Assembly (NCBI GenBank): GCA_002687895.1 | Contig: NZBL01000003.1 | Location: forward strand, 20,821-84,820 | DNA from: a bacterium | GTDB taxonomy: Bacteria; Patescibacteriota; Patescibacteriia; UBA2169 | Direction of reading: 5' to 3' | DNA length: 64,000 nucleotides | Part shown: one piece after another, positions 2,660 through 34,315 of the stretch | Layout of the letters: every line of letters begins with the position of its first letter | Position numbering within the stretch: the first letter of the stretch is position 1 | Made by a program: the position numbers and the translations under genes | Notes under the pieces: generated by a model | Seen by the model: the letters and a program-made list of their open reading frames with translations, nothing else | The model's database searches: none | What the model was told of the DNA's origin: nothing

Positions 2660-3580
2660 ATGAGCATATTTAAGAATAAAAAAATTAAAAATACTATAAT
2701 TGGAGCAGGAATTATAATATTTATTGTCATAATATTTGGAATTGGAATATACCGCGCCCAATGGCAGTCAAATATTGCTTATGTTGCCGCCAGAATTATT
2801 CCTTATCCTGCTATTTTGGTTGATTGGGAATTTATTCCATTGCATATATATATAAATGATCTTCAAACTCTTAATAAGTATTGGAATTTCCAGCGCGACA
2901 ACACAAATATTCTTTTGGGCATACCTAACCAAAATGAGATTAGAGAGCGCTTGATAAATAAGCTGATTACTGAAAAAATCATTCATATTTGGGCGCGCAA
3001 GAACAGAATTCAAGTTTCAGATGAAGAGCTGTATTTGGAATGGGAAAGGCTAAAAACAAAGCCTGGAGGAGAGGAGGAAATCACACAGTTTTTAGATGAC
3101 GCATATGGGTGGAGCGATAAAAAATTTATAGATCGGGTATTGCATCCTTTTCTGCTTCAGCAAAAAGTAAAAGCAGCGCTTTTGCAGGAGCGCGGAGAAA
3201 CTGATGAAACAATAAAGGAAGATGCGTTGGAAATATACGTACTAGCAATAGAACAGGGAGCTGATTTTAGCGAGCTTGCTAAACAGTATTCTTATGACGC
3301 TATATCAGGACCAAAGGGAGGTGATCTTGGATATTTTGGAAGGGGAACCCTTGAGCCTCAGCTAGAATCAGCTATTTTTGATATGGAAATTGGCCAGATT
3401 AGCAAGCCAATAAAATCCTCTTTTGGGTATCACATAGTAAAGTTGGAGGATCTATTATATAGTGATACGGGCGTAGCAACTAAGGCGCGTGCAAGCCATA
3501 TTTTGATAAGAGGGTTTGATTTTAACGAGTGGATAGAAAAGCAAAAACAAGAACTAGCTATTTATAGGCTAGTAATATAG
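2660..3580 (+). CDS. PpiC/parvulin-type peptidyl-prolyl cis-trans isomerase (PrsA/SurA-like), N-terminal TM anchor
   Basis: 306 aa; parvulin motifs ASHILI and SFGYHIVKLED, GPKGGDLGYFGRG; N-terminal hydrophobic anchor. Confidence 0.7.
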   Translation: MSIFKNKKIKNTIIGAGIIIFIVIIFGIGIYRAQWQSNIAYVAARIIPYPAILVDWEFIPLHIYINDLQTLNKYWNFQRDNTNILLGIPNQNEIRERLINKLITEKIIHIWARKNRIQVSDEELYLEWERLKTKPGGEEEITQFLDDAYGWSDKKFIDRVLHPFLLQQKVKAALLQERGETDETIKEDALEIYVLAIEQGADFSELAKQYSYDAISGPKGGDLGYFGRGTLEPQLESAIFDMEIGQISKPIKSSFGYHIVKLEDLLYSDTGVATKARASHILIRGFDFNEWIEKQKQELAIYRLVI

Positions 3581-3775
3581 CTGGAGTGTCTTTATGACTC
3601 TGCTCGAACTTACTTTATCAAAAATTCCTGACTTTTGGAAGCCCGCCACCAGCCGCCGCAAAGCGGCGGCCTGCCTCGCAGAAAAATTGCCTTACCTTTT
3701 TTGATTTTGCGCGCGCCGAGCGGCAAGGATCCATCAGGGCAAAATCAATGGGCGGCTCTGCACTTTCTCTAAAAC

Positions 3776-3850
3776 TGGAGCAGGTGACGGGATTTGAACC
3801 CGCGATCTTCTGCTTGGGAAGCAGACGTTCTACCACTGAACTACACCTGC
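3776..3850 (-). tRNA. tRNA-Gly (anticodon CCC)
   Basis: Reverse complement GCAGGTGTAGTTCAGTGGTAGAACGTCTGCTTCCCAAGCAGAAGATCGCGGGTTCAAATCCCGTCACCTGCTCCA: 7-bp acceptor stem, GTTCAAATCC T-arm, anticodon loop TTCCCAA, encoded CCA. Confidence 0.85.
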
Positions 3851-7449: not shown

Positions 7450-8973
7450 ATGATTTCGTCAATGCCGCGATTATCACACAAACCGCTATATCGCTTTTTA
7501 GAAACAATCCCAGCCACTTTGGTTTGGGGTAGTTTTATTGGAGCAATAATTTTATCTATTTTCGCGCCATTGATTGCTATATATATCATCATATTATTTG
7601 ATTTGTATTGGCTAATTAAAGTAGTATATTGGCTAGTATACTTATTTAATTCATATCGCCATTATAGAACAGACATAAGAATTAACTGGCTCTCTAAACT
7701 AGAACAAGAAGATCCAATTTCTAATGACACAGCGCAATCGCATTGGAATAATTTATATCATTTAATATTTTTACCTACTTACAAAGAGCCTTTTGAAGTA
7801 CTTGATACAACATTTAAGGGTTTAGTTAATAGCAATTATCCTAAAGATAAATTTATAATTGCATTAGGAGTAGAGGAATGGGATAAAGAGCATGGATTGA
7901 AGGTTGCTCAAAAAATCAAGCAAAAATACGGAAATTACTTTTTTAAATTCTGGATTACTGTTCATCCAAAAAATCTTCCAAATGAGCAAAGAGGCAAAGG
8001 ATCAAACAATGTATTTGCCGCGAAAGCCGCGCAAAAGGAAATTGACAAGCTGAATATTGCATATGAAAAAATAATTGTATCAAGTTTTGATATTGACACA
8101 ATCGCGCATAAAGAATACTTTGGACATCTTACATATAAATTCTTGACCCACCCAAAGCCGCACAACACAAGCTATCAGCCAGTTGCTTTGTTTAACAACA
8201 ATATTTGGAAATCAAATCCATTTACAAGAACAGTTTCCAATGGCACAACATTCTGGCTTTTAACTGATCTCTCGCGTCCAGATCGTTTATTCACATTCTC
8301 ATCTCACTCAATGAGCTGGAAAACATTGGTTGCTGTTGGATTTTGGGAGGCTGATATTGTTACAGAAGATTCGCGCATTTTTCTGCAATGTCTGCTTCAC
8401 TATAATGGCGACTATGCTGTGACTCCAATGTATGTGCCAGTTTCCATGGATACTGTTGAGACAGGATCATTTTGGAGCTCCATATATGCTGTGTATAAGC
8501 AGCAAAGAAGATGGGCATGGGGAGTAGAGAATACCCCATACATGATGTGGCATTTTAGATTTAACAAAAAAATTCCTTTTATGAAAAAATTTAAATACTT
8601 TTTTAATCAAACAGAAGGAGCGTTCTCACTAGCAACTGTTCCAATATTAATTACAATGCTTGGGCGCTTGCCTTTGTATTTTGCAGATAAATCTACTCAA
8701 TCCACCGTAATAGCGCAAAACGCACCAATTGTTTTGGACTGGCTTTTGACAACTGCCATGGTTGGATTGTTCGCAACCGCAGTTATTTCAATTGTATTTT
8801 TACCGCCAATTCCAAAAGGCGAATCAAAGCACCGCTATTTGTGGATGTTTTTACAGTGGTTGCTTTTTCCTGTAAATATGATATTATTCGGCTCTGTGCC
8901 TGCAATTGAGGCGCAGACCCGCTTGGCCACAGGAAAGTATTTAGGCTTTCATGTGACTAAGAAAAATCGTTGA
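7450..8973 (+). CDS. Membrane-embedded family 2 glycosyltransferase of the processive cellulose/chitin-synthase-like type (QxxRW motif)
   Basis: 507 aa; N-terminal TMs, QQRRWAWG (QxxRW) motif, C-terminal TMs. Confidence 0.55.
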   Translation: MISSMPRLSHKPLYRFLETIPATLVWGSFIGAIILSIFAPLIAIYIIILFDLYWLIKVVYWLVYLFNSYRHYRTDIRINWLSKLEQEDPISNDTAQSHWNNLYHLIFLPTYKEPFEVLDTTFKGLVNSNYPKDKFIIALGVEEWDKEHGLKVAQKIKQKYGNYFFKFWITVHPKNLPNEQRGKGSNNVFAAKAAQKEIDKLNIAYEKIIVSSFDIDTIAHKEYFGHLTYKFLTHPKPHNTSYQPVALFNNNIWKSNPFTRTVSNGTTFWLLTDLSRPDRLFTFSSHSMSWKTLVAVGFWEADIVTEDSRIFLQCLLHYNGDYAVTPMYVPVSMDTVETGSFWSSIYAVYKQQRRWAWGVENTPYMMWHFRFNKKIPFMKKFKYFFNQTEGAFSLATVPILITMLGRLPLYFADKSTQSTVIAQNAPIVLDWLLTTAMVGLFATAVISIVFLPPIPKGESKHRYLWMFLQWLLFPVNMILFGSVPAIEAQTRLATGKYLGFHVTKKNR

Positions 8974-9799
8974 TATTGAATCCTTTATTGCCTTTCAGAA
9001 ATTCTGAATAAGGCATTCTTTTTTTACCTTCAAGCTGAACCTCCTTTGGAGTTCCATCTTTTGACATTTTCCAGATGATGAGCTTTTTATTTTTATAAGT
9101 TGTCCATGCCCCAGGCCAGGGATTCATTGCGCGAACATGTGCTTCAATTTCAGTTTTTGACTTTTTCCAGTTAATTTTCCCAACTTGTTTTGTCAATTTT
9201 TCTGTGAATGATGCTTTAGCATGATCCTGCTCTTTTGGTTTGATTTTGCCTGCAATATAATCTGGTAATATTTTTATAAACAAATCAGCACCTATTTTAG
9301 CGAGTTTATCATGTAAATCTCCTGCTGTTTCTGTTTTATCTAGTTTAACTTTTTCTTGTGTAATAATTGGTCCATGATCCATTTCATCATCAAGTTGCAT
9401 AATAGTAACTCCTGTTTCATCATCTTGATTTAAGATTGCTACCTGAATAGGGGATGAACCGCGATACTTTGGCAAAAGGGATGGATGAAGATTTAATATT
9501 CCCTTTGGAAATGAATTAATAAGTTTCTTTGGAATAATTTTTCCATAAGCAACAAGAATGCCAAGATCAGCACCTGTGGGGTCAATTTTAGTTATATCAT
9601 CAACAACATCAATCCCTGCCTTTTGTGATTCTTTTTTTATAGGAGAGGGAACTAATTTTGAATGATGCCTGCCAACTGGCTTATCTGGTTGCGTAACGAC
9701 AAATTTAATATCAATAAAACCGGCCTTAATTAAGGCCTTAAGTGTTGGCACTGCAAATTCAGGCGTACCGAAGAATATAATTTGATAATTCTTATACAT
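8957..9799 (-). CDS. fmt: Methionyl-tRNA formyltransferase
   Basis: 280 aa; N-terminus IIFFGTPEFAVPTLKAL, NLHPSLLPKYRG motif; directly downstream of def. Confidence 0.85.
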   Translation of the reverse strand: MYKNYQIIFFGTPEFAVPTLKALIKAGFIDIKFVVTQPDKPVGRHHSKLVPSPIKKESQKAGIDVVDDITKIDPTGADLGILVAYGKIIPKKLINSFPKGILNLHPSLLPKYRGSSPIQVAILNQDDETGVTIMQLDDEMDHGPIITQEKVKLDKTETAGDLHDKLAKIGADLFIKILPDYIAGKIKPKEQDHAKASFTEKLTKQVGKINWKKSKTEIEAHVRAMNPWPGAWTTYKNKKLIIWKMSKDGTPKEVQLEGKKRMPYSEFLKGNKGFNINDFS

Positions 9800-10268
9800 C
9801 TAATTTGCCTTTTGTGATTTCACTTACTCTATCTATGATCAAAACTCCGTCCATGTGATCAATCTCATGCTGGAGAACGCGAGCAAAAAGATTGGTTGCC
9901 TTCAACTTTTGCTCTTGTCCACTACTATCTGTGTAGCGGACTTTTATTTTTTTATGGCGATTCACCATTCCAAATACTTCTGGAATAGATAAGCATCCTT
10001 CTTCCTCTTCAACCATTTCTTTTGAAGCGGAAAATATTTTTGGATTGATAATTATCAAGTGATCTTCCAAAGATTCATCAGCGTCTTTGCTGATTATGGC
10101 GCAACGAACGCTCTTCCCAACCTGAACAGCGGAAATTCCAATGCCTTTTTCATGCTCCATGGTATCAATCATATCTGAACACAATTTTTGAACACCAGAA
10201 ATATCATCAACTTTAACTGATGCTTCACTTAACTTTGGGTTAGGATAAAATACAAGAGGCAGTTTCAT
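9792..10268 (-). CDS. def: Peptide deformylase
   Basis: 158 aa; motifs GIGISAVQVG, EGCLSIP, QHEIDH. Confidence 0.9.
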   Translation of the reverse strand: MKLPLVFYPNPKLSEASVKVDDISGVQKLCSDMIDTMEHEKGIGISAVQVGKSVRCAIISKDADESLEDHLIIINPKIFSASKEMVEEEEGCLSIPEVFGMVNRHKKIKVRYTDSSGQEQKLKATNLFARVLQHEIDHMDGVLIIDRVSEITKGKLDV

Positions 10269-11944
10269 AATACATTTTCTGGATCGCGATCTATGCTCCA
10301 GTCTTTTGAAAGCTCTTTGAGCATTGATAAATCAGTTTTAGAATTGAATTTTAATACAATTGATAATTTCTTTTTTTTGTCTACAAAAGGGCCTAATATC
10401 TTTACAGAGGAATCTAATTCCTGCTTAAGAATTCTGGCTGCTTGTTCATCATCATAAGGATTATTCTTTTTTCTTCTGTAAGAAAGCTTAATTAAATTTA
10501 CAAATGGGGGATATTGAAGTTCTTTCCTATGCTCTAGCTCATTTTTTATAAATGCATCCACTTCATCATACGCAAACGCGCGCATTATAGAACTATTAGG
10601 AGAATATGACTGCAGAATAAGCTCGCTAAATCCAAGTTCTTGAGCAAGCATTTTCCAATGCTGAAGACGATAATATACTCGTTCCGAGCTTCTGTAGTCT
10701 GGTATGGCAAGCAGTGGTTCTATAGAGCTGAATATTAGCAATCCAAGTGAACCGCGCTTAGAACTCAATTTTAAGCCTTCTAGGATATTAGGAGTTGCAA
10801 CAAGTACATCAAAGTCATTTTTATCAGTGCTAATATTACAATTTTTCAGTGATTTAGTCAATATTTCATATAATGCTTCAACAGACACACCTTTATCAGA
10901 TTTTTCACGCAAGGATAATATGACAACTTTCTTTTGAGCATTGATAGTTTCTTGAACGCGACCCATGGTTTTATCCGCCATAATAGAAAAATCTTTTCTT
11001 GTCATTTCCTGCTCCATATCAATGATTTTGATTTTGAGATTATGACTGCGAGCAGGAGGTAAATTTATATATGATAGAGCCTTGTTTGTGACAATAGAGC
11101 TGGATGAAGTAAAGATTAATTGCGACTTGCTGATGCCTGCGAGCCAGTTAGCCGCAATCCTAGCGTCATATTTTGGATGCTGGTCATACTGCTTAAAATC
11201 ATCGCTTGTGCTTTCAAAGAATATAATAATGCTGTTAGCCTGAATAGGAAGAAATACGCCTTGTCGAGTTGAAAAAATAATATTTGACTTGGCATCTCTT
11301 ATGCTTTTATACGCATTCCAGTACTGTGTCTTATTTAAATCGCTATGAATTGCGGTGCATTTGCCTGAACACAAAATTTGCACAGTAGCTTGCATGGCAT
11401 TAATCATTTCAATGTTCGGAACCAATACAAGCAATTGGCTTTGCGTGTGCTTTGACAGGCGGACAATGAGCCATACAAACGAAGACACGTCGCTGATTGT
11501 GATATGGCTTGCTTGATCTGACAGGGTAGAAGCGAACTGCTCAAGTGCTGGAAGCTGGCTTTTCGCGATTCTGAATTCAGCGTCTGAAGCAAGGGCGTAA
11601 TCTTTAGTAGTAATTTTTTTCTCTGGCGCGTCTGGAACTATCATGCGCGCAACTGATCCGCGAGCTACAAAATAATAATCACTGAATTTTTGAATTAAAT
11701 CCAGCTGGCTGCTGGTTAGGATTGGATTCTCATCCGCGATTGACGCGACAGGACGGGCTCTAAACTTTTTTGATTCTTGAGTTTGGGCCAAAGACAAAAC
11801 AACCCCTGTGGCTTTTTCATGCCTCCAGGGGATTTGTACTAATTGTCCTTCTTTTATCCTGCTAGTAAATTCATCTGGAACAAAGTAGTCAAACACATCA
11901 ACTTTAGAAGGCAGGCGAAGAAGAGGAGTAACTTTTGCTATCAT
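10265..11944 (-). CDS. Primosomal protein N' (PriA)-like with a degenerate helicase Walker A
   Basis: 559 aa; N-terminal 3'-DNA-binding region MIAKVTPLLRLPSKVDVFDYFVP...GQLVQIPWRHEKATGVVL; LVLVPNIEMINAM segment matches PriA motif I-a but no GxTGSGKT Walker A is present. Confidence 0.55.
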   Translation of the reverse strand: MIAKVTPLLRLPSKVDVFDYFVPDEFTSRIKEGQLVQIPWRHEKATGVVLSLAQTQESKKFRARPVASIADENPILTSSQLDLIQKFSDYYFVARGSVARMIVPDAPEKKITTKDYALASDAEFRIAKSQLPALEQFASTLSDQASHITISDVSSFVWLIVRLSKHTQSQLLVLVPNIEMINAMQATVQILCSGKCTAIHSDLNKTQYWNAYKSIRDAKSNIIFSTRQGVFLPIQANSIIIFFESTSDDFKQYDQHPKYDARIAANWLAGISKSQLIFTSSSSIVTNKALSYINLPPARSHNLKIKIIDMEQEMTRKDFSIMADKTMGRVQETINAQKKVVILSLREKSDKGVSVEALYEILTKSLKNCNISTDKNDFDVLVATPNILEGLKLSSKRGSLGLLIFSSIEPLLAIPDYRSSERVYYRLQHWKMLAQELGFSELILQSYSPNSSIMRAFAYDEVDAFIKNELEHRKELQYPPFVNLIKLSYRRKKNNPYDDEQAARILKQELDSSVKILGPFVDKKKKLSIVLKFNSKTDLSMLKELSKDWSIDRDPENVL

Positions 11945-32051: not shown

Positions 32052-32755
32052 TTTTGGCTGATTGGCCTGCTTAGGGAATCTAAAAGTATTCTAATGGCTT
32101 TTGAAAGCTTTTTTGAATGATGCTTAAGAAGCTCTGCGCGCAATACAGGGATTAATGATTCTATCCAATCTTGAATATGCTCCTTTTCTACTCCAGCCTC
32201 TAGCCATACTCTCATTCTTTGGTTGCTTGAATCTTCTTTAAGAATATTTTGAATTAGTGAATTATCCTGATTTTCTGATTCTATAACAGGCTTTCCACTG
32301 AAATAGAATGGCACTGTTCTTGAATATATTGTGGGCAGAACTTGATCTTTGTGATTTATAAGCAGAAATATGTATGTATTTTTTGCTGGCTCTTCTAAAA
32401 TTTTCAAAAACGCATTCTGCGCTTCTGTGTTCATTGCATTTGCGCTGTTTATGATAAGCACTTTTTTGTCTGAACTAATAGGCGTCTGTGCTAGCCATGA
32501 TCGTGATTCACGGATTTTATTTATGCTTATAATGCTCTTTTCTGGAGAAATTGACCTTATGTCTGGATGATTTAAATCTTGCGACGGTACAAAATCAATT
32601 AAAAATGATTTTAACAACTCTGTTCTTCCTATGTTTCTAGCTCCAATAAAGCTATACGCATGGCTTAATGTTTTATTATTAGCGCAATTTTGTAAATATA
32701 ATAAAATCTGTTTCTGCATAACTTCATTATACATAAAATTGATTGATTGCGTCAA
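32012..32755 (-). CDS. holB: DNA polymerase III delta' subunit-like (HolB; degenerate AAA+)
   Basis: 247 aa; N-terminal LSHAYSFIGARNIGRTELLKSF resembles the delta' degenerate P-loop region. Confidence 0.55.
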   Translation of the reverse strand: MTQSINFMYNEVMQKQILLYLQNCANNKTLSHAYSFIGARNIGRTELLKSFLIDFVPSQDLNHPDIRSISPEKSIISINKIRESRSWLAQTPISSDKKVLIINSANAMNTEAQNAFLKILEEPAKNTYIFLLINHKDQVLPTIYSRTVPFYFSGKPVIESENQDNSLIQNILKEDSSNQRMRVWLEAGVEKEHIQDWIESLIPVLRAELLKHHSKKLSKAIRILLDSLSRPISQNWQLVAEQSIISI

Positions 32756-32761
32756 ATTTTG

Positions 32762-32795
32762 TAAAAAAATGGCCGAACACTTTGTTCAGCCATTT
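32762..32795 (-). terminator. Rho-independent terminator (minus strand) ending the small-ORF transcript upstream of holB
   Basis: aatggccgaaca-ctt-tgttcagccatt hairpin (11/12 bp) preceded on plus by A7 (T-run on minus). Confidence 0.55.
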
Positions 32796-32816
32796 TATAA
32801 ACTGCTATAGTCGCTT

Positions 32817-33041
32817 TTAGTAGTATTTTTCTTGGGGTCTTCGTTCTGGCCAAATTCTCCTGTTTCCGCTTCCTCCTCCGCGTTTTCTGCATTCATGTTT
32901 AGCATCAAATTCATCAACACCTTGTACCAAAAGAAAGCCAGTCTCACCTCCCCACAGAGTTGATATCACTTTTCCACTACTCCCAACTACTTCTCTTTCC
33001 TTTGAAGATAATTCCTTATCAACAAATTCTTCTGATACCAA
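32817..33041 (-). CDS. Small hypothetical ORF (74 codons, TTG start only), Gly/Arg/Glu-rich
   Basis: ORF track; in-frame TAG 34 nt upstream so only a TTG start is available; poly-G immediately upstream; composition atypical for the window. Confidence 0.25.
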   Translation of the reverse strand: MVSEEFVDKELSSKEREVVGSSGKVISTLWGGETGFLLVQGVDEFDAKHECRKRGGGSGNRRIWPERRPQEKYY

Positions 33042-33060
33042 AACCCCCCAGTTGTATTCA

Positions 33061-33267
33061 TTAGTCTTCGTGGCCTACCTCCTTTTCGCCAACTTGCTCT
33101 ATACCTGTCGCATTATATTTCTTAGTACTAAGAAGTTCGTTAGGTTTCTCGACAGCTTCCTCATATGTCAGATTCGGTTCTGAAAGTCGTTTTGGATCTG
33201 CGTCTGGTGCTGCACCTTTTTCTACGACAACCACAACAAAGGTGCAACCAGGAAATAATGAATACAT
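33061..33267 (-). CDS. Small acidic hypothetical protein (68 aa) with good SD
   Basis: Minus strand aaaggagtattgctATG; MYSLFPGCTFVVVVVEKGAAPDADPKRLSEPNLTYEEAVEKPNELLSTKKYNATGIEQVGEKEVGHED. Confidence 0.4.
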   Translation of the reverse strand: MYSLFPGCTFVVVVVEKGAAPDADPKRLSEPNLTYEEAVEKPNELLSTKKYNATGIEQVGEKEVGHED

Positions 33268-33294
33268 AGCAATACTCCTTTCTTAAATGAACAA

Positions 33295-33322
33295 TTAAAA
33301 AACCCTAGCTCGTGCTAGGGAT
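33295..33322 (-). terminator. Hairpin with U-run on minus strand (CCCTAGC-TCGT-GCTAGGG) just upstream of the small-ORF SD; first of two similar palindromes
   Basis: aaaaaaccctagctcgtgctaggg on plus; second copy ccctagcctgagctagagg at 33353-33371. Confidence 0.4.
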
Positions 33323-33637
33323 ATGTTGAAAAAATTATTCAAATCAAACTTCCCTAGCCTGAGCTAGAGGAGGATGAAACTGCCAGTACTTTTGACAATT
33401 GATATGTTTGAATATTTTTCATATCTAGTATTATTATAGAGCCATGAACTTTATATGTCTATATCATCTTGTTAATAACTAAATTGACTTAAATTAAAAC
33501 TATTATATTATTAATATAATATAATAAAGCAATTAGCCAAGAACTACTCCTTTTTCTTCATTTTCACCTGATTAGGATCAGTTTTTGATTAGCGTTGGAG
33601 CAAATTGCTCCTTTATAACCAACCCAAGGGGGAGGAG

Positions 33638-34315
33638 ATGTCAGATAATAACGGATTTGTAATACATGAGCCTAATAAGTTTTCCAAATTCATTAAAGAT
33701 GAGCTGAATATCCCATTTAAAATCGCAATACATGGCTTGGAGAATTCTTTCTCAAGCCTGGTGACTAGAAAAGCCTTGGAAAGCATTGGGCTTTCTTTGG
33801 GATATGATGCTATTCCTGTTTATTCAAAATCCGCGCGCAATACAGTAAACGAGGTAATGAACAGGAAAATTTCACTTGGCGTTGTTGCTTCAATAAACAA
33901 TAACGTGGGATTTGTTGATGAAACAAGGCAGGCTTTTTTAGATAATGGCGGCACAATGCTCTGTATAACCTGCTGCACGCTTGAGATAGAGCAATGCTTG
34001 ATCGCGCATCAAAGCATTGTAGATATCAATCAGGTATTAGCTATAAAAGCCCACCCAATGGCGCTTAGGCAGTGTTTAGAAAAGTTATCGCACAAATATC
34101 CTCATATTAAACTGCTTGACAGTTCTAATGAGGACGACACTGCAAAATGCGCATTGGACATAGCAAGCGGCATTGTGCCATCAACAACCGCAACCCTGGC
34201 CTCTGAAGAAGTAATACAAGGAGATGCCAGGATTAAATGCATAAAAAAAAGAATGGAGACAAGGCATCCGAACATTACCACCTTTCCCATATTTATGAGT
34301 TCCCCCCTACCATGA
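33638..34315 (+). CDS. Prephenate dehydratase (PDT) domain protein lacking an ACT domain
   Basis: SD gggggaggag before ATG 33638; alignable by eye to the PheA PDT domain (KIAIHGLENSFSSLV ~ RIAFLGPKGSYSHLA; VLAIKAHPMALRQCLEKL ~ VYSHPQPFQQCSKFL; TAKCA ~ TSAAM; NITTFPIF ~ NFTRFVVL). Confidence 0.55.
   Translation: MSDNNGFVIHEPNKFSKFIKDELNIPFKIAIHGLENSFSSLVTRKALESIGLSLGYDAIPVYSKSARNTVNEVMNRKISLGVVASINNNVGFVDETRQAFLDNGGTMLCITCCTLEIEQCLIAHQSIVDINQVLAIKAHPMALRQCLEKLSHKYPHIKLLDSSNEDDTAKCALDIASGIVPSTTATLASEEVIQGDARIKCIKKRMETRHPNITTFPIFMSSPLP

Follow-up and report, generated by a model that had tools for sequence, protein, structure and literature searches.

The DNA analysed here is a stretch of 64,000 nucleotides (the window) of contig NZBL01000003.1, which has a low GC content (0.379) and derives from a genome of the Patescibacteria, or candidate phyla radiation (CPR). 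The locus of interest lies among genes for ribosome recycling factor (RRF), a BNR-repeat protein, DNA polymerase III delta' (holB-type), a PDT-domain protein, MreB and a DUF4012 protein, and it carries on its minus strand a candidate leader-peptide attenuator (33297-33461) followed by two small open reading frames (ORFs), ORF68 and ORF74. The original prediction for this region had described two small ORFs between two intrinsic terminators, two palindromes and a tiny plus-strand ORF, and it had correctly named the flanking genes as holB and a PDT-domain gene.

The leader upstream of ORF68 and ORF74

A sigma-70-like promoter (TAGACA, 17-nt spacer, TATAAT; 33433..33461, minus strand) agrees with the consensus at 11 of 12 positions, and only 10 nt lie between the end of its -10 box and the ATG of a 22-codon ORF, MKNIQTYQLSKVLAVSSSSSSG, which ends at a TAG stop codon (33354..33422, minus strand). 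Transcription would start a few nucleotides before this ATG, and the leader mRNA would then have almost no 5' untranslated region and no Shine-Dalgarno (SD) sequence. The ORF contains six Ser codons in a row (TCA TCC TCC TCT AGC TCA), and its stop codon lies inside the second of four complementary arms. Arm 1, which corresponds to Ser codons 18-20, pairs with arm 2 in hairpin 1:2 (CUCUAGC-UCAG-GCUAGGG; 33352..33369, minus strand; -10.9 kcal/mol), the putative anti-antiterminator. Arm 2 (GCUAGGGA, 33351-33358) can alternatively pair with arm 3 (UCCCUAGC, 33314-33321) in an antiterminator 2:3 (33314..33358, minus strand; -15.6 kcal/mol), and this pairing and the intrinsic terminator 3:4 (CCCUAGC-ACGA-GCUAGGG plus U6; 33297..33320, minus strand; -12.1 kcal/mol, z-score -3.8) are mutually exclusive. 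The U6 tract occupies 33297-33302, and hairpins 1:2 and 3:4 are separated in the window by an AU-rich spacer of 31 nt. On the minus strand the leader is followed by ORF68, ORF74, a second strong intrinsic terminator (32762..32796; -18.6 kcal/mol, z-score -5.6) and, directly after it, the near-consensus promoter of holB (TTGACG, 18 nt, TATAAT; 32726-32755). Judged by this arrangement, the leader, the two ORFs and the closing terminator would make up a self-contained small operon.

The two palindromes of the original prediction are both present, the first exact (33303-33320) and the second, identical to hairpin 1:2, with one mismatch (33352-33369), and so are both terminators, as hairpins followed by T6 (33303-33320) and by T7 (32766-32796). 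It had offered two explanations for the palindromes, a pair of operator sites or alternative hairpins, and the second was borne out, since on the minus strand the 3' arm of the second palindrome complements the 5' arm of the first and gives the 1:2, 2:3 and 3:4 pairings, which are conserved in relatives. The minimum free energy fold flips from terminator to antiterminator once the upstream part of the leader that a ribosome would cover is masked. At no more than one mismatch, where the chance test is informative (at three mismatches it is not), 0.01 matches to the palindrome pair are expected in the window, and none of 100 shuffles contained two. A generic attenuator detector, which looks for a terminator with an upstream copy of its 3' arm and a small ORF ending there, gave exactly one match in the window; on both strands of the window and about 1.3 Mb of loci it gave 14 matches, seven of which are leaders described here, and it missed several other leaders.

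The element thus combines a short ORF at the 5' end, a run of a single amino acid at arm 1, a stop codon in arm 2, an intrinsic terminator, and 1:2 and 2:3 pairings that exclude each other. On this sequence evidence it is probably a ribosome-mediated leader-peptide transcription attenuator controlling the ORF68-ORF74 operon, and the suggestion of a small regulatory module in the original prediction fits this layout. After initiation just upstream of the ATG, a ribosome would translate the 22-codon leader. If unhindered, it would reach the TAG codon and cover arms 1 and 2, terminator 3:4 would form, and transcription would stop at the U6 tract. If charged tRNA-Ser is scarce, or translation is slowed, the ribosome would stall on the early Ser codons that lead into and form arm 1 and would leave arm 2 free; arm 2 would then pair with arm 3, the terminator could not form, and RNA polymerase would enter ORF68 and ORF74. 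Without any translation, hairpins 1:2 and 3:4, or a nested 1:4 plus 2:3 structure, would form and lead to termination.

Homologous leaders at the MreB-holB locus of relatives

The orthologous loci were reached via MreB and holB, and the PDT-like protein as query gave no contig of a relative and, among proteins, only itself. By comparison of MreB, the nearest named relatives are metagenome-assembled genomes (MAGs) of Komeilibacteria and Kerfeldbacteria. The gene order DUF4012-MreB-gap-holB-BNR-RRF is kept across Patescibacteria loci, with a gap of 25 bp to 5 kb. The sequence of the window itself is present in many marine assemblies, including Tara and ENA assemblies, and the seven contigs retrieved from different samples all match; across the region they are 100% identical, the 90% clusters contain no variant, and no within-species variation for dN/dS or covariation was found among them.

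The same layout was found at the MreB-holB position in nine further leaders, at loci L007, L096 (two units, L096a and L096b), L094, L098/L099, L010, L011, L012 and L107. Two of them carry a Ser run. The leader of L007 (MAG CAZXOU01), whose MreB is 97% identical to that of the window, begins MKNILNYEISKVLASSSSS and is cut off before its stop by the end of the contig, and that of L096a reads MKNIQNYLISIICSGSSSSNRWLR up to its stop and is followed by an 83-aa ORF. The other seven, all read to the stop codon, are of Leu/ILV type: MNFTQTHNIIVVLLLSHWAR in L096b, before a 133-aa ORF; MKNAQKNITSLVLILDVISYG in L094 and MNTTTNQNTILVLNIMVLSHG in L098/L099, each before two small proteins that are homologous between the two loci; MHYQSHSTVLLLGLLLTERG in L010, before an 83-aa ORF; MNYHSQNLLLDLLLLQLRAR in L011 and MMSHKHNAVVILSLLLLKRG in L012, each before a small ORF and then leuA; and MNQHPHSHSAGLLLGLLLLEQG in L107, before a 103-aa ORF. 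The leuA genes of L011 and L012 carry HMGL-like and LeuA_dimer domains (Pfam). The relatives therefore include leaders with cognate cargo, a Leu-rich leader before leuA and, in a second leader family described below, a Phe/Tyr-rich leader before DAHP synthase. A small, fast-evolving ORF directly after the leader recurs in the family, even where leuA follows.

The leader ORF is 20-24 codons long in all nine further leaders (with that of L007 truncated where its contig stops). In 9/9 completely sequenced leaders the stop codon is inside arm 2 (GGCUAGG) or follows it directly, and in the same nine arm 2 is able to pair with arm 3 and the terminator with its U-tract comes next. Between the -10 box and the ATG there are 9-11 nt in eight of nine leaders examined, and an SD sequence was found in none. 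Loops of 4-7 nt and spacings of 31-48 nt between the palindromes occur in the homologues, with the RNA pairing of arms 1-2, 2-3 and 3-4 kept, and between arms 2 and 3 lies an AU-rich spacer of low conservation. Three species (those of the window, L007 and L096a) have a Ser-type leader, and the Ser codons used differ among them. The leader of the window shares 78% nucleotide identity with that of L007, for which MreB DNA shows 81% despite 97% protein identity, and 67% with that of L096a, for which holB DNA shows 62%; the conservation of the leader is close to that of coding DNA.

Pair counts were taken from a six-species alignment (A3) only, as MAFFT alignment of whole leaders misaligned the arms. 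In it, 91.5% of cells are paired in terminator 3:4 and 93.6% in antiterminator 2:3, and slid controls gave 11-68%. Three compensatory events were seen: an A-U to G-C change in L010, an inserted pair in L011 with an extra G in arm 2 to match, and a U-A to C-G change in the terminator of L096a with arm 2 changed accordingly. A covariance model (R1) built from six leaders scored the window leader at 58 bits, and it recognised members outside its training set, namely L107 (30 bits, E 5e-6), L096b (21.7 bits, E 0.026) and L096a (17.1 bits). It gave no convincing match in about 70 more distant Patescibacteria loci, and the leader family looks clade-specific, at least near the MreB-holB locus. A metagenome scan with a degenerate leader pattern returned the same species and six chance matches only, and the continuation of the L007 leader was not recovered. 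Taken together, the window element very likely is a member of a conserved attenuator family, and the best-supported account of its origin makes it a descendant or a paralogue of the Leu/ILV leader of the clade, with the run now encoding serine.

The comparison with relatives also bears on the operator-pair option of the original prediction, in which the palindromes would act at the DNA level as binding sites of a dimeric regulator at divergent promoters and the plus-strand ORF of 21 codons would be a real gene. In its favour, the palindromes have at most one mismatch and are flanked by divergent genes, and a similar antisense ORF follows GGAGG in L007, the closest relative. The palindromes are, on the other hand, downstream of the minus-strand promoter, inside the predicted transcript and more than 110 bp from the promoter of the PDT-like gene, the T-tract is on the minus strand only, and loop and spacing vary while RNA complementarity is kept. 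No regulator gene is adjacent, and the palindrome, expected to recur elsewhere under that prediction, was not found in the 64-kb window besides the pair itself. We consider this explanation highly improbable. The plus-strand ORF exists (33374-33439), and what had been called its perfect SD does not stand, as GGAGG abuts the ATG with no spacer and is the opposite-strand reading of the Ser codons TCC TCC TC. Only the window, L007 and L012 have an antisense ORF with ATG and a GGAGG-like motif, such ORFs being absent or inconsistent in the rest of the family, and the ORF that is conserved is the minus-strand leader with its stop in or next to arm 2. The plus-strand ORF is therefore best read as the antisense of the leader peptide and a by-product of its Ser codons, and hardly as a coding element.

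A third explanation accepts the RNA switch and proposes that it is set without a translating ribosome, by a small molecule as in riboswitches, by a tRNA in a T-box-like manner, or by an RNA-binding protein. Alternative helices by themselves are silent on what selects between them, and the 31-48 nt between arms 2 and 3 could hold a binding site. This spacer is the AU-rich and poorly conserved part of the leader, however, and what is conserved is the short ORF, its start just after the -10 box, the biased codon run and the stop in arm 2; the sister leaders also match their cargo (Leu with leuA, Phe/Tyr with DAHP synthase). Permissive Rfam scans gave no family for the window region even at E <= 10, nor for six homologous loci at E <= 0.1, and the same scans placed none of them in the curated leader families (Leu_leader, His_leader, Thr_leader, Trp_leader, leu/phe leader and others). 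A switch of this kind seems very unlikely, and we retain the ribosome-mediated attenuator.

The small proteins and the divergent aromatic leader

ORF68 (33061-33267, minus strand; 33061..33281 with its SD) is the first gene after the attenuator and encodes 68 aa. Its SD sequence AAAGGAG (33275-33281) lies 7 nt before the ATG, in agreement with the original prediction. By a rough count with uncurated starts, GGAG, GAGG and AGGA are missing from the 25 nt before the longest-ORF start in 33 of 43 long ORFs of the window. SD sequences may be little used in this organism, in which case the clear one of ORF68 would stand out. ORF74 (32817..33041, minus strand), the second gene of the unit, has 74 codons and the predicted TTG start behind a G6T4 tract, with the exact start uncertain. 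Of the two ORFs called acidic, ORF68 is fairly described as Glu/Lys-rich (10 Glu, 6 Lys and 3 Asp in 68), and ORF74 is rich in Glu, Gly, Arg and Lys and not plainly acidic. With a codon model trained on the long genes of the window, in which real 70-codon windows average 0.316 bits per codon, ORF68 scored 0.43, the 85th percentile of real-gene windows, and ORF74 scored 0.37; none of 55 spurious ORFs reached these scores. The codon usage of both ORFs is native and gene-like, and they look coding. NCBI, JGI and Tara records annotate ORF68 as a hypothetical protein, and ORF74 is called by some annotations only.

The stop codon of ORF68 overlaps an ATG (TAATG) that opens a 24-codon ORF, MNTTGGFWYQKNLLIRNYLQRKEK followed by a stop (33041-33064, minus strand), and ORF74 starts in the -1 frame at the TTG inside the G6T4 tract of this ORF. 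A -1 slip at G6T4 would join the ATG start coupled to ORF68 to the frame of ORF74. This layout is not an assembly error, because the sequence is identical in all assemblies.

The original prediction recognised none of these parts, and the searches agree. ORF68 found only itself among 1.84 billion protein cluster representatives, and the concatenate of ORF68 and ORF74 found nothing at E <= 1 in a word-based search. Neither ORF matched a protein family, and NCBIfam, PHROGs and PADLOC searches with all cargo micro-proteins gave nothing meaningful. AlphaFold2 models had a mean pLDDT of 55.6 for ORF68 and 47.4 for ORF74, too low for a fold search. Neither ORF could be linked by tblastn or hhalign to any small ORF behind the leaders of relatives. 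Two other identities were rejected. A structured non-coding RNA such as RNase P, tmRNA or 6S, considered for the G-rich minus strand of 32817-33270, can be set aside, since Rfam gave no match there at E <= 10, neither a tmRNA nor a tRNA was found, and the codon usage looks coding. A single frameshifted pseudogene of a known protein was disfavoured by the empty search with the concatenate, by tblastn with the LeuA and small proteins of relatives, which gave noise, and by hhalign (probabilities of at most 0.4%).

Among the relatives, L094 (246-1033) and L099 (4033-4857) share two small-protein families behind the ILV-type leader, one of about 105-110 aa (50% identical) and one of about 152-161 aa (44% identical). 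The 74-aa ORF of L012 (11030-11254) shows weak similarity to the 83-aa ORF of L010 (37% over 32 aa). None of these proteins matched any family library searched, and the notion that the 152/161-aa proteins are stand-alone LeuA_dimer domains was dropped, since Pfam gave nothing, hhalign aligned the last helix only (probability 20-47%) and a PDB profile search gave noise.

The region had also been described as a compositionally atypical island, possibly horizontally acquired. Its GC content (0.42, against a gene mean of 0.38 +/- 0.022) is only weakly atypical, as other genes of the window reach 0.44-0.47, and the GC content at third codon positions (0.31 and 0.26 for the two ORFs) is native, like their codon usage. 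No mobility genes flank the island, and foreign composition or codon usage was not found either. Recent horizontal transfer of ORF68 and ORF74 is not supported, because their codons are native, and the leader is orthologous to those of relatives, though the ORFs downstream are species-specific. Comparison of the orthologous holB regions, proposed as a check, showed the leader in relatives, and ORF68, ORF74 and the PDT-like protein are encoded in no relative examined at the MreB-holB locus. The cassette is gone altogether in some relatives, with a gap of 25 bp in L008 and about 200 bp in L095 and L100. In one relative, L098/L099, a CMAS-type methyltransferase gene lies in the MreB-holB gap upstream of the leader (3000-3834), and a few kb downstream of holB there are genes for a tyrosine integrase and for DNA methylases (8584-10807), so the chromosome is plastic here within the clade. 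The 'binchicken' MAG records, L007-L011 and L030 among them, are titled 'uncultured Gammaproteobacteria bacterium'; they have the Patescibacteria-type DUF4012-MreB-holB-BNR-RRF order and an MreB 89-97% identical to that of the window, and the label looks wrong.

The spacer of 370 bp between ORF68 and the PDT-like gene holds two leaders back to back, the intact Ser-type leader and a decayed Phe-type one. In relatives, a second leader family with its own 1:2 and 3:4 hairpins lies on the strand opposite to holB and is rich in aromatic residues. Some members came from the generic detector and further ones from follow-up search and sequence reading, and the family was located in L009, L010, L011, L012, L030, L096, L099, L106 and L107. 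The peptides, each ending at a stop codon, read MQHATTYFFSFYFTD in L030, NAYFFSFYFLTD in L011 (C-terminal part), MQYINTYFFSFYFKLT in L096, MQYTSTYFSSYFTN in L099, MYSQLRNSFSFYFFFS in L009, MHRQPQNSFSFYFFFS in L106 and MHRQLQNSFSFYFFFS in L107. DAHP synthase follows most of these leaders and other genes follow the rest; in the window, the PDT-like gene sits in the DAHP synthase position. Its leader (33484..33611, plus strand) has a promoter (TTGACT, 16 nt, TATTAT) and two small hairpins, and a Phe-rich frame, KQLAKNYSFFFIFT up to its stop (33527-33571, plus strand), has AAG where the relatives have ATG. The frame is followed by a short hairpin that runs directly into a T5 tract, and the antiterminator part has been lost. 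By its sequence, this copy looks like a decayed aromatic leader-peptide attenuator. The PDT-like protein itself (33638-34315, plus strand; 225 aa) has a PDT domain without an ACT domain and scores 41 bits against the 219-bit cut-off for prephenate dehydratase; it found only itself in a word-based search of 5.8 billion proteins and is nearly an orphan.

Decay next door brings in the main rival explanation, that the Ser-type leader too is an evolutionary relic. It would derive from a leuA attenuator but sense nothing any longer in this species; its role would be no more than that of a constitutive partial terminator, and the two ORFs behind it would be young or decaying frames left after the loss of a biosynthetic gene. 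Relatives have leuA or unrelated small ORFs at this place, L008, L095 and L100 lost the cassette, the neighbouring aromatic leader lost its ATG and antiterminator, and ORF68, alone or joined to ORF74, found no relatives in the searches above, with neither ORF having a family match or a confident fold. Against this, every functional piece is intact, from the promoter and the ATG through the four arms, with the stop in arm 2, to the U6 tract, and three species have kept the Ser-type leader despite heavy divergence at synonymous sites. ORF68 and ORF74 have gene-like native codons, ORF68 has a proper SD sequence, and the sequence is identical in all seven retrieved contigs. We regard the relic as unlikely.

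Several points nevertheless weigh against a working attenuator. Where transcription starts and stops, and that the leader is translated, are predictions from the DNA. The nested 1:4 plus 2:3 fold (33300-33372, minus strand; -31.6 kcal/mol, z-score -6.5) is possible as all four arms are mutually complementary; it is thermodynamically better than 1:2 plus 3:4 and still leaves a hairpin before the U-tract, and because of this greater stability the model depends on the order and kinetics of co-transcriptional folding. Covariation did not exceed that of shuffles, which reached the observed scores in 109/500 and 329/500 cases; it is statistically weak because the CCUAGCC/GGCUAGG core hardly varies, and the structural support consists of conserved pairing potential and a few compensatory events, short of statistical proof. 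Only three Ser-type leaders are known, one of them the truncated leader of L007, and the decay of the sister leader on the other strand of the spacer makes decay possible at this locus. Both the Ser codons and the Leu codons of the sister leaders are CU-rich, so a constraint on nucleotides or structure in arm 1 could account for part of the Ser run. No function can be recognised for ORF68 or ORF74 and no link of either to serine is known, and for that reason the correspondence of amino acid and biosynthetic operon seen in the sisters cannot be checked in the window. That the window element is a working, serine-specific sensor today is a claim to which we give close to an even chance at best.

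If the attenuator does work, a tentative and rather doubtful extension is that it outlived its leuA cargo and became a persistent socket for micro-protein genes of fast turnover, possibly newborn ones, with the codons switched from Leu to Ser in the lineage of the window. A leaderless sensor of serine starvation, or of translation stress in general, would then drive orphan proteins.

Comparison with known attenuators

Patescibacteria are usually described as reduced, auxotrophic episymbionts with little regulation, and an organism such as that of the window is thought to have minimal regulation and no amino acid biosynthesis. A search of the literature on leader-peptide attenuation in Patescibacteria found no paper. 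A clade-wide pair of divergent attenuators, with Phe/Tyr runs before DAHP synthase and Leu/ILV runs before leuA or small ORFs, would imply that these cells monitor tRNA charging. Both leader families could join RNA-family libraries and help to annotate many MAGs. If functional, the window element would be a rare serine-type attenuator and a clean case of a conserved regulatory leader with replaced cargo, which bears on the origin and regulation of orphan genes.

In the classical attenuators of Enterobacteria (trp, his, leu, ilvGMEDA, thr, pheA), a short ORF with a run of one amino acid precedes 1:2, 2:3 and 3:4 pairings, the stop codon lies near segment 2, and a terminator precedes the first gene. 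To our knowledge, none of them has a serine run. The mechanism of leader-peptide attenuation is outlined in PMC1183508. Among the relatives, leuA follows Leu runs and DAHP synthase follows Phe/Tyr runs, an arrangement that corresponds to the enterobacterial leu and pheA leaders. Unlike the enterobacterial attenuators, the window leader has no SD sequence and an ATG about 10 nt after the -10 box, its run is of serine, its cargo consists of two orphan micro-proteins and its host belongs to the CPR, and no sequence or Rfam relationship was found. What looks new here is the host phylum, the serine run and the orphan cargo.

In the attenuators with upstream ORFs of the ermC and cat type, and in the terminator variants detected by Term-seq, a stalled ribosome remodels a hairpin and the cargo need not be biosynthetic. 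The window element shares with the ermC/cat type the small upstream ORF, the hairpin switch and possibly a non-biosynthetic cargo. There, ribosomes are stalled by drugs on peptide motifs, whereas in the family described here the run is of a single amino acid and sister leaders match biosynthesis genes.

The closest parallels are the leu leader of C. diphtheriae, MNRANLLLLRRGGSQA, located upstream of leuA, and its ilvB leader, MNIIRLVVITTRRLP, which is translated from a leaderless transcript (PMC5784534). These Corynebacterium leaders are very like MHYQSHSTVLLLGLLLTERG and MMSHKHNAVVILSLLLLKRG of the relatives, and the start without an SD sequence is shared with the window leader. They belong to another phylum, and the window has Ser in place of Leu codons and no leuA; common descent is not demonstrable because the elements are so short. 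The window element, which would work in the manner of the trp, leu and pheA attenuators of Enterobacteria, resembles the leaderless leader peptides of Actinobacteria even more closely.

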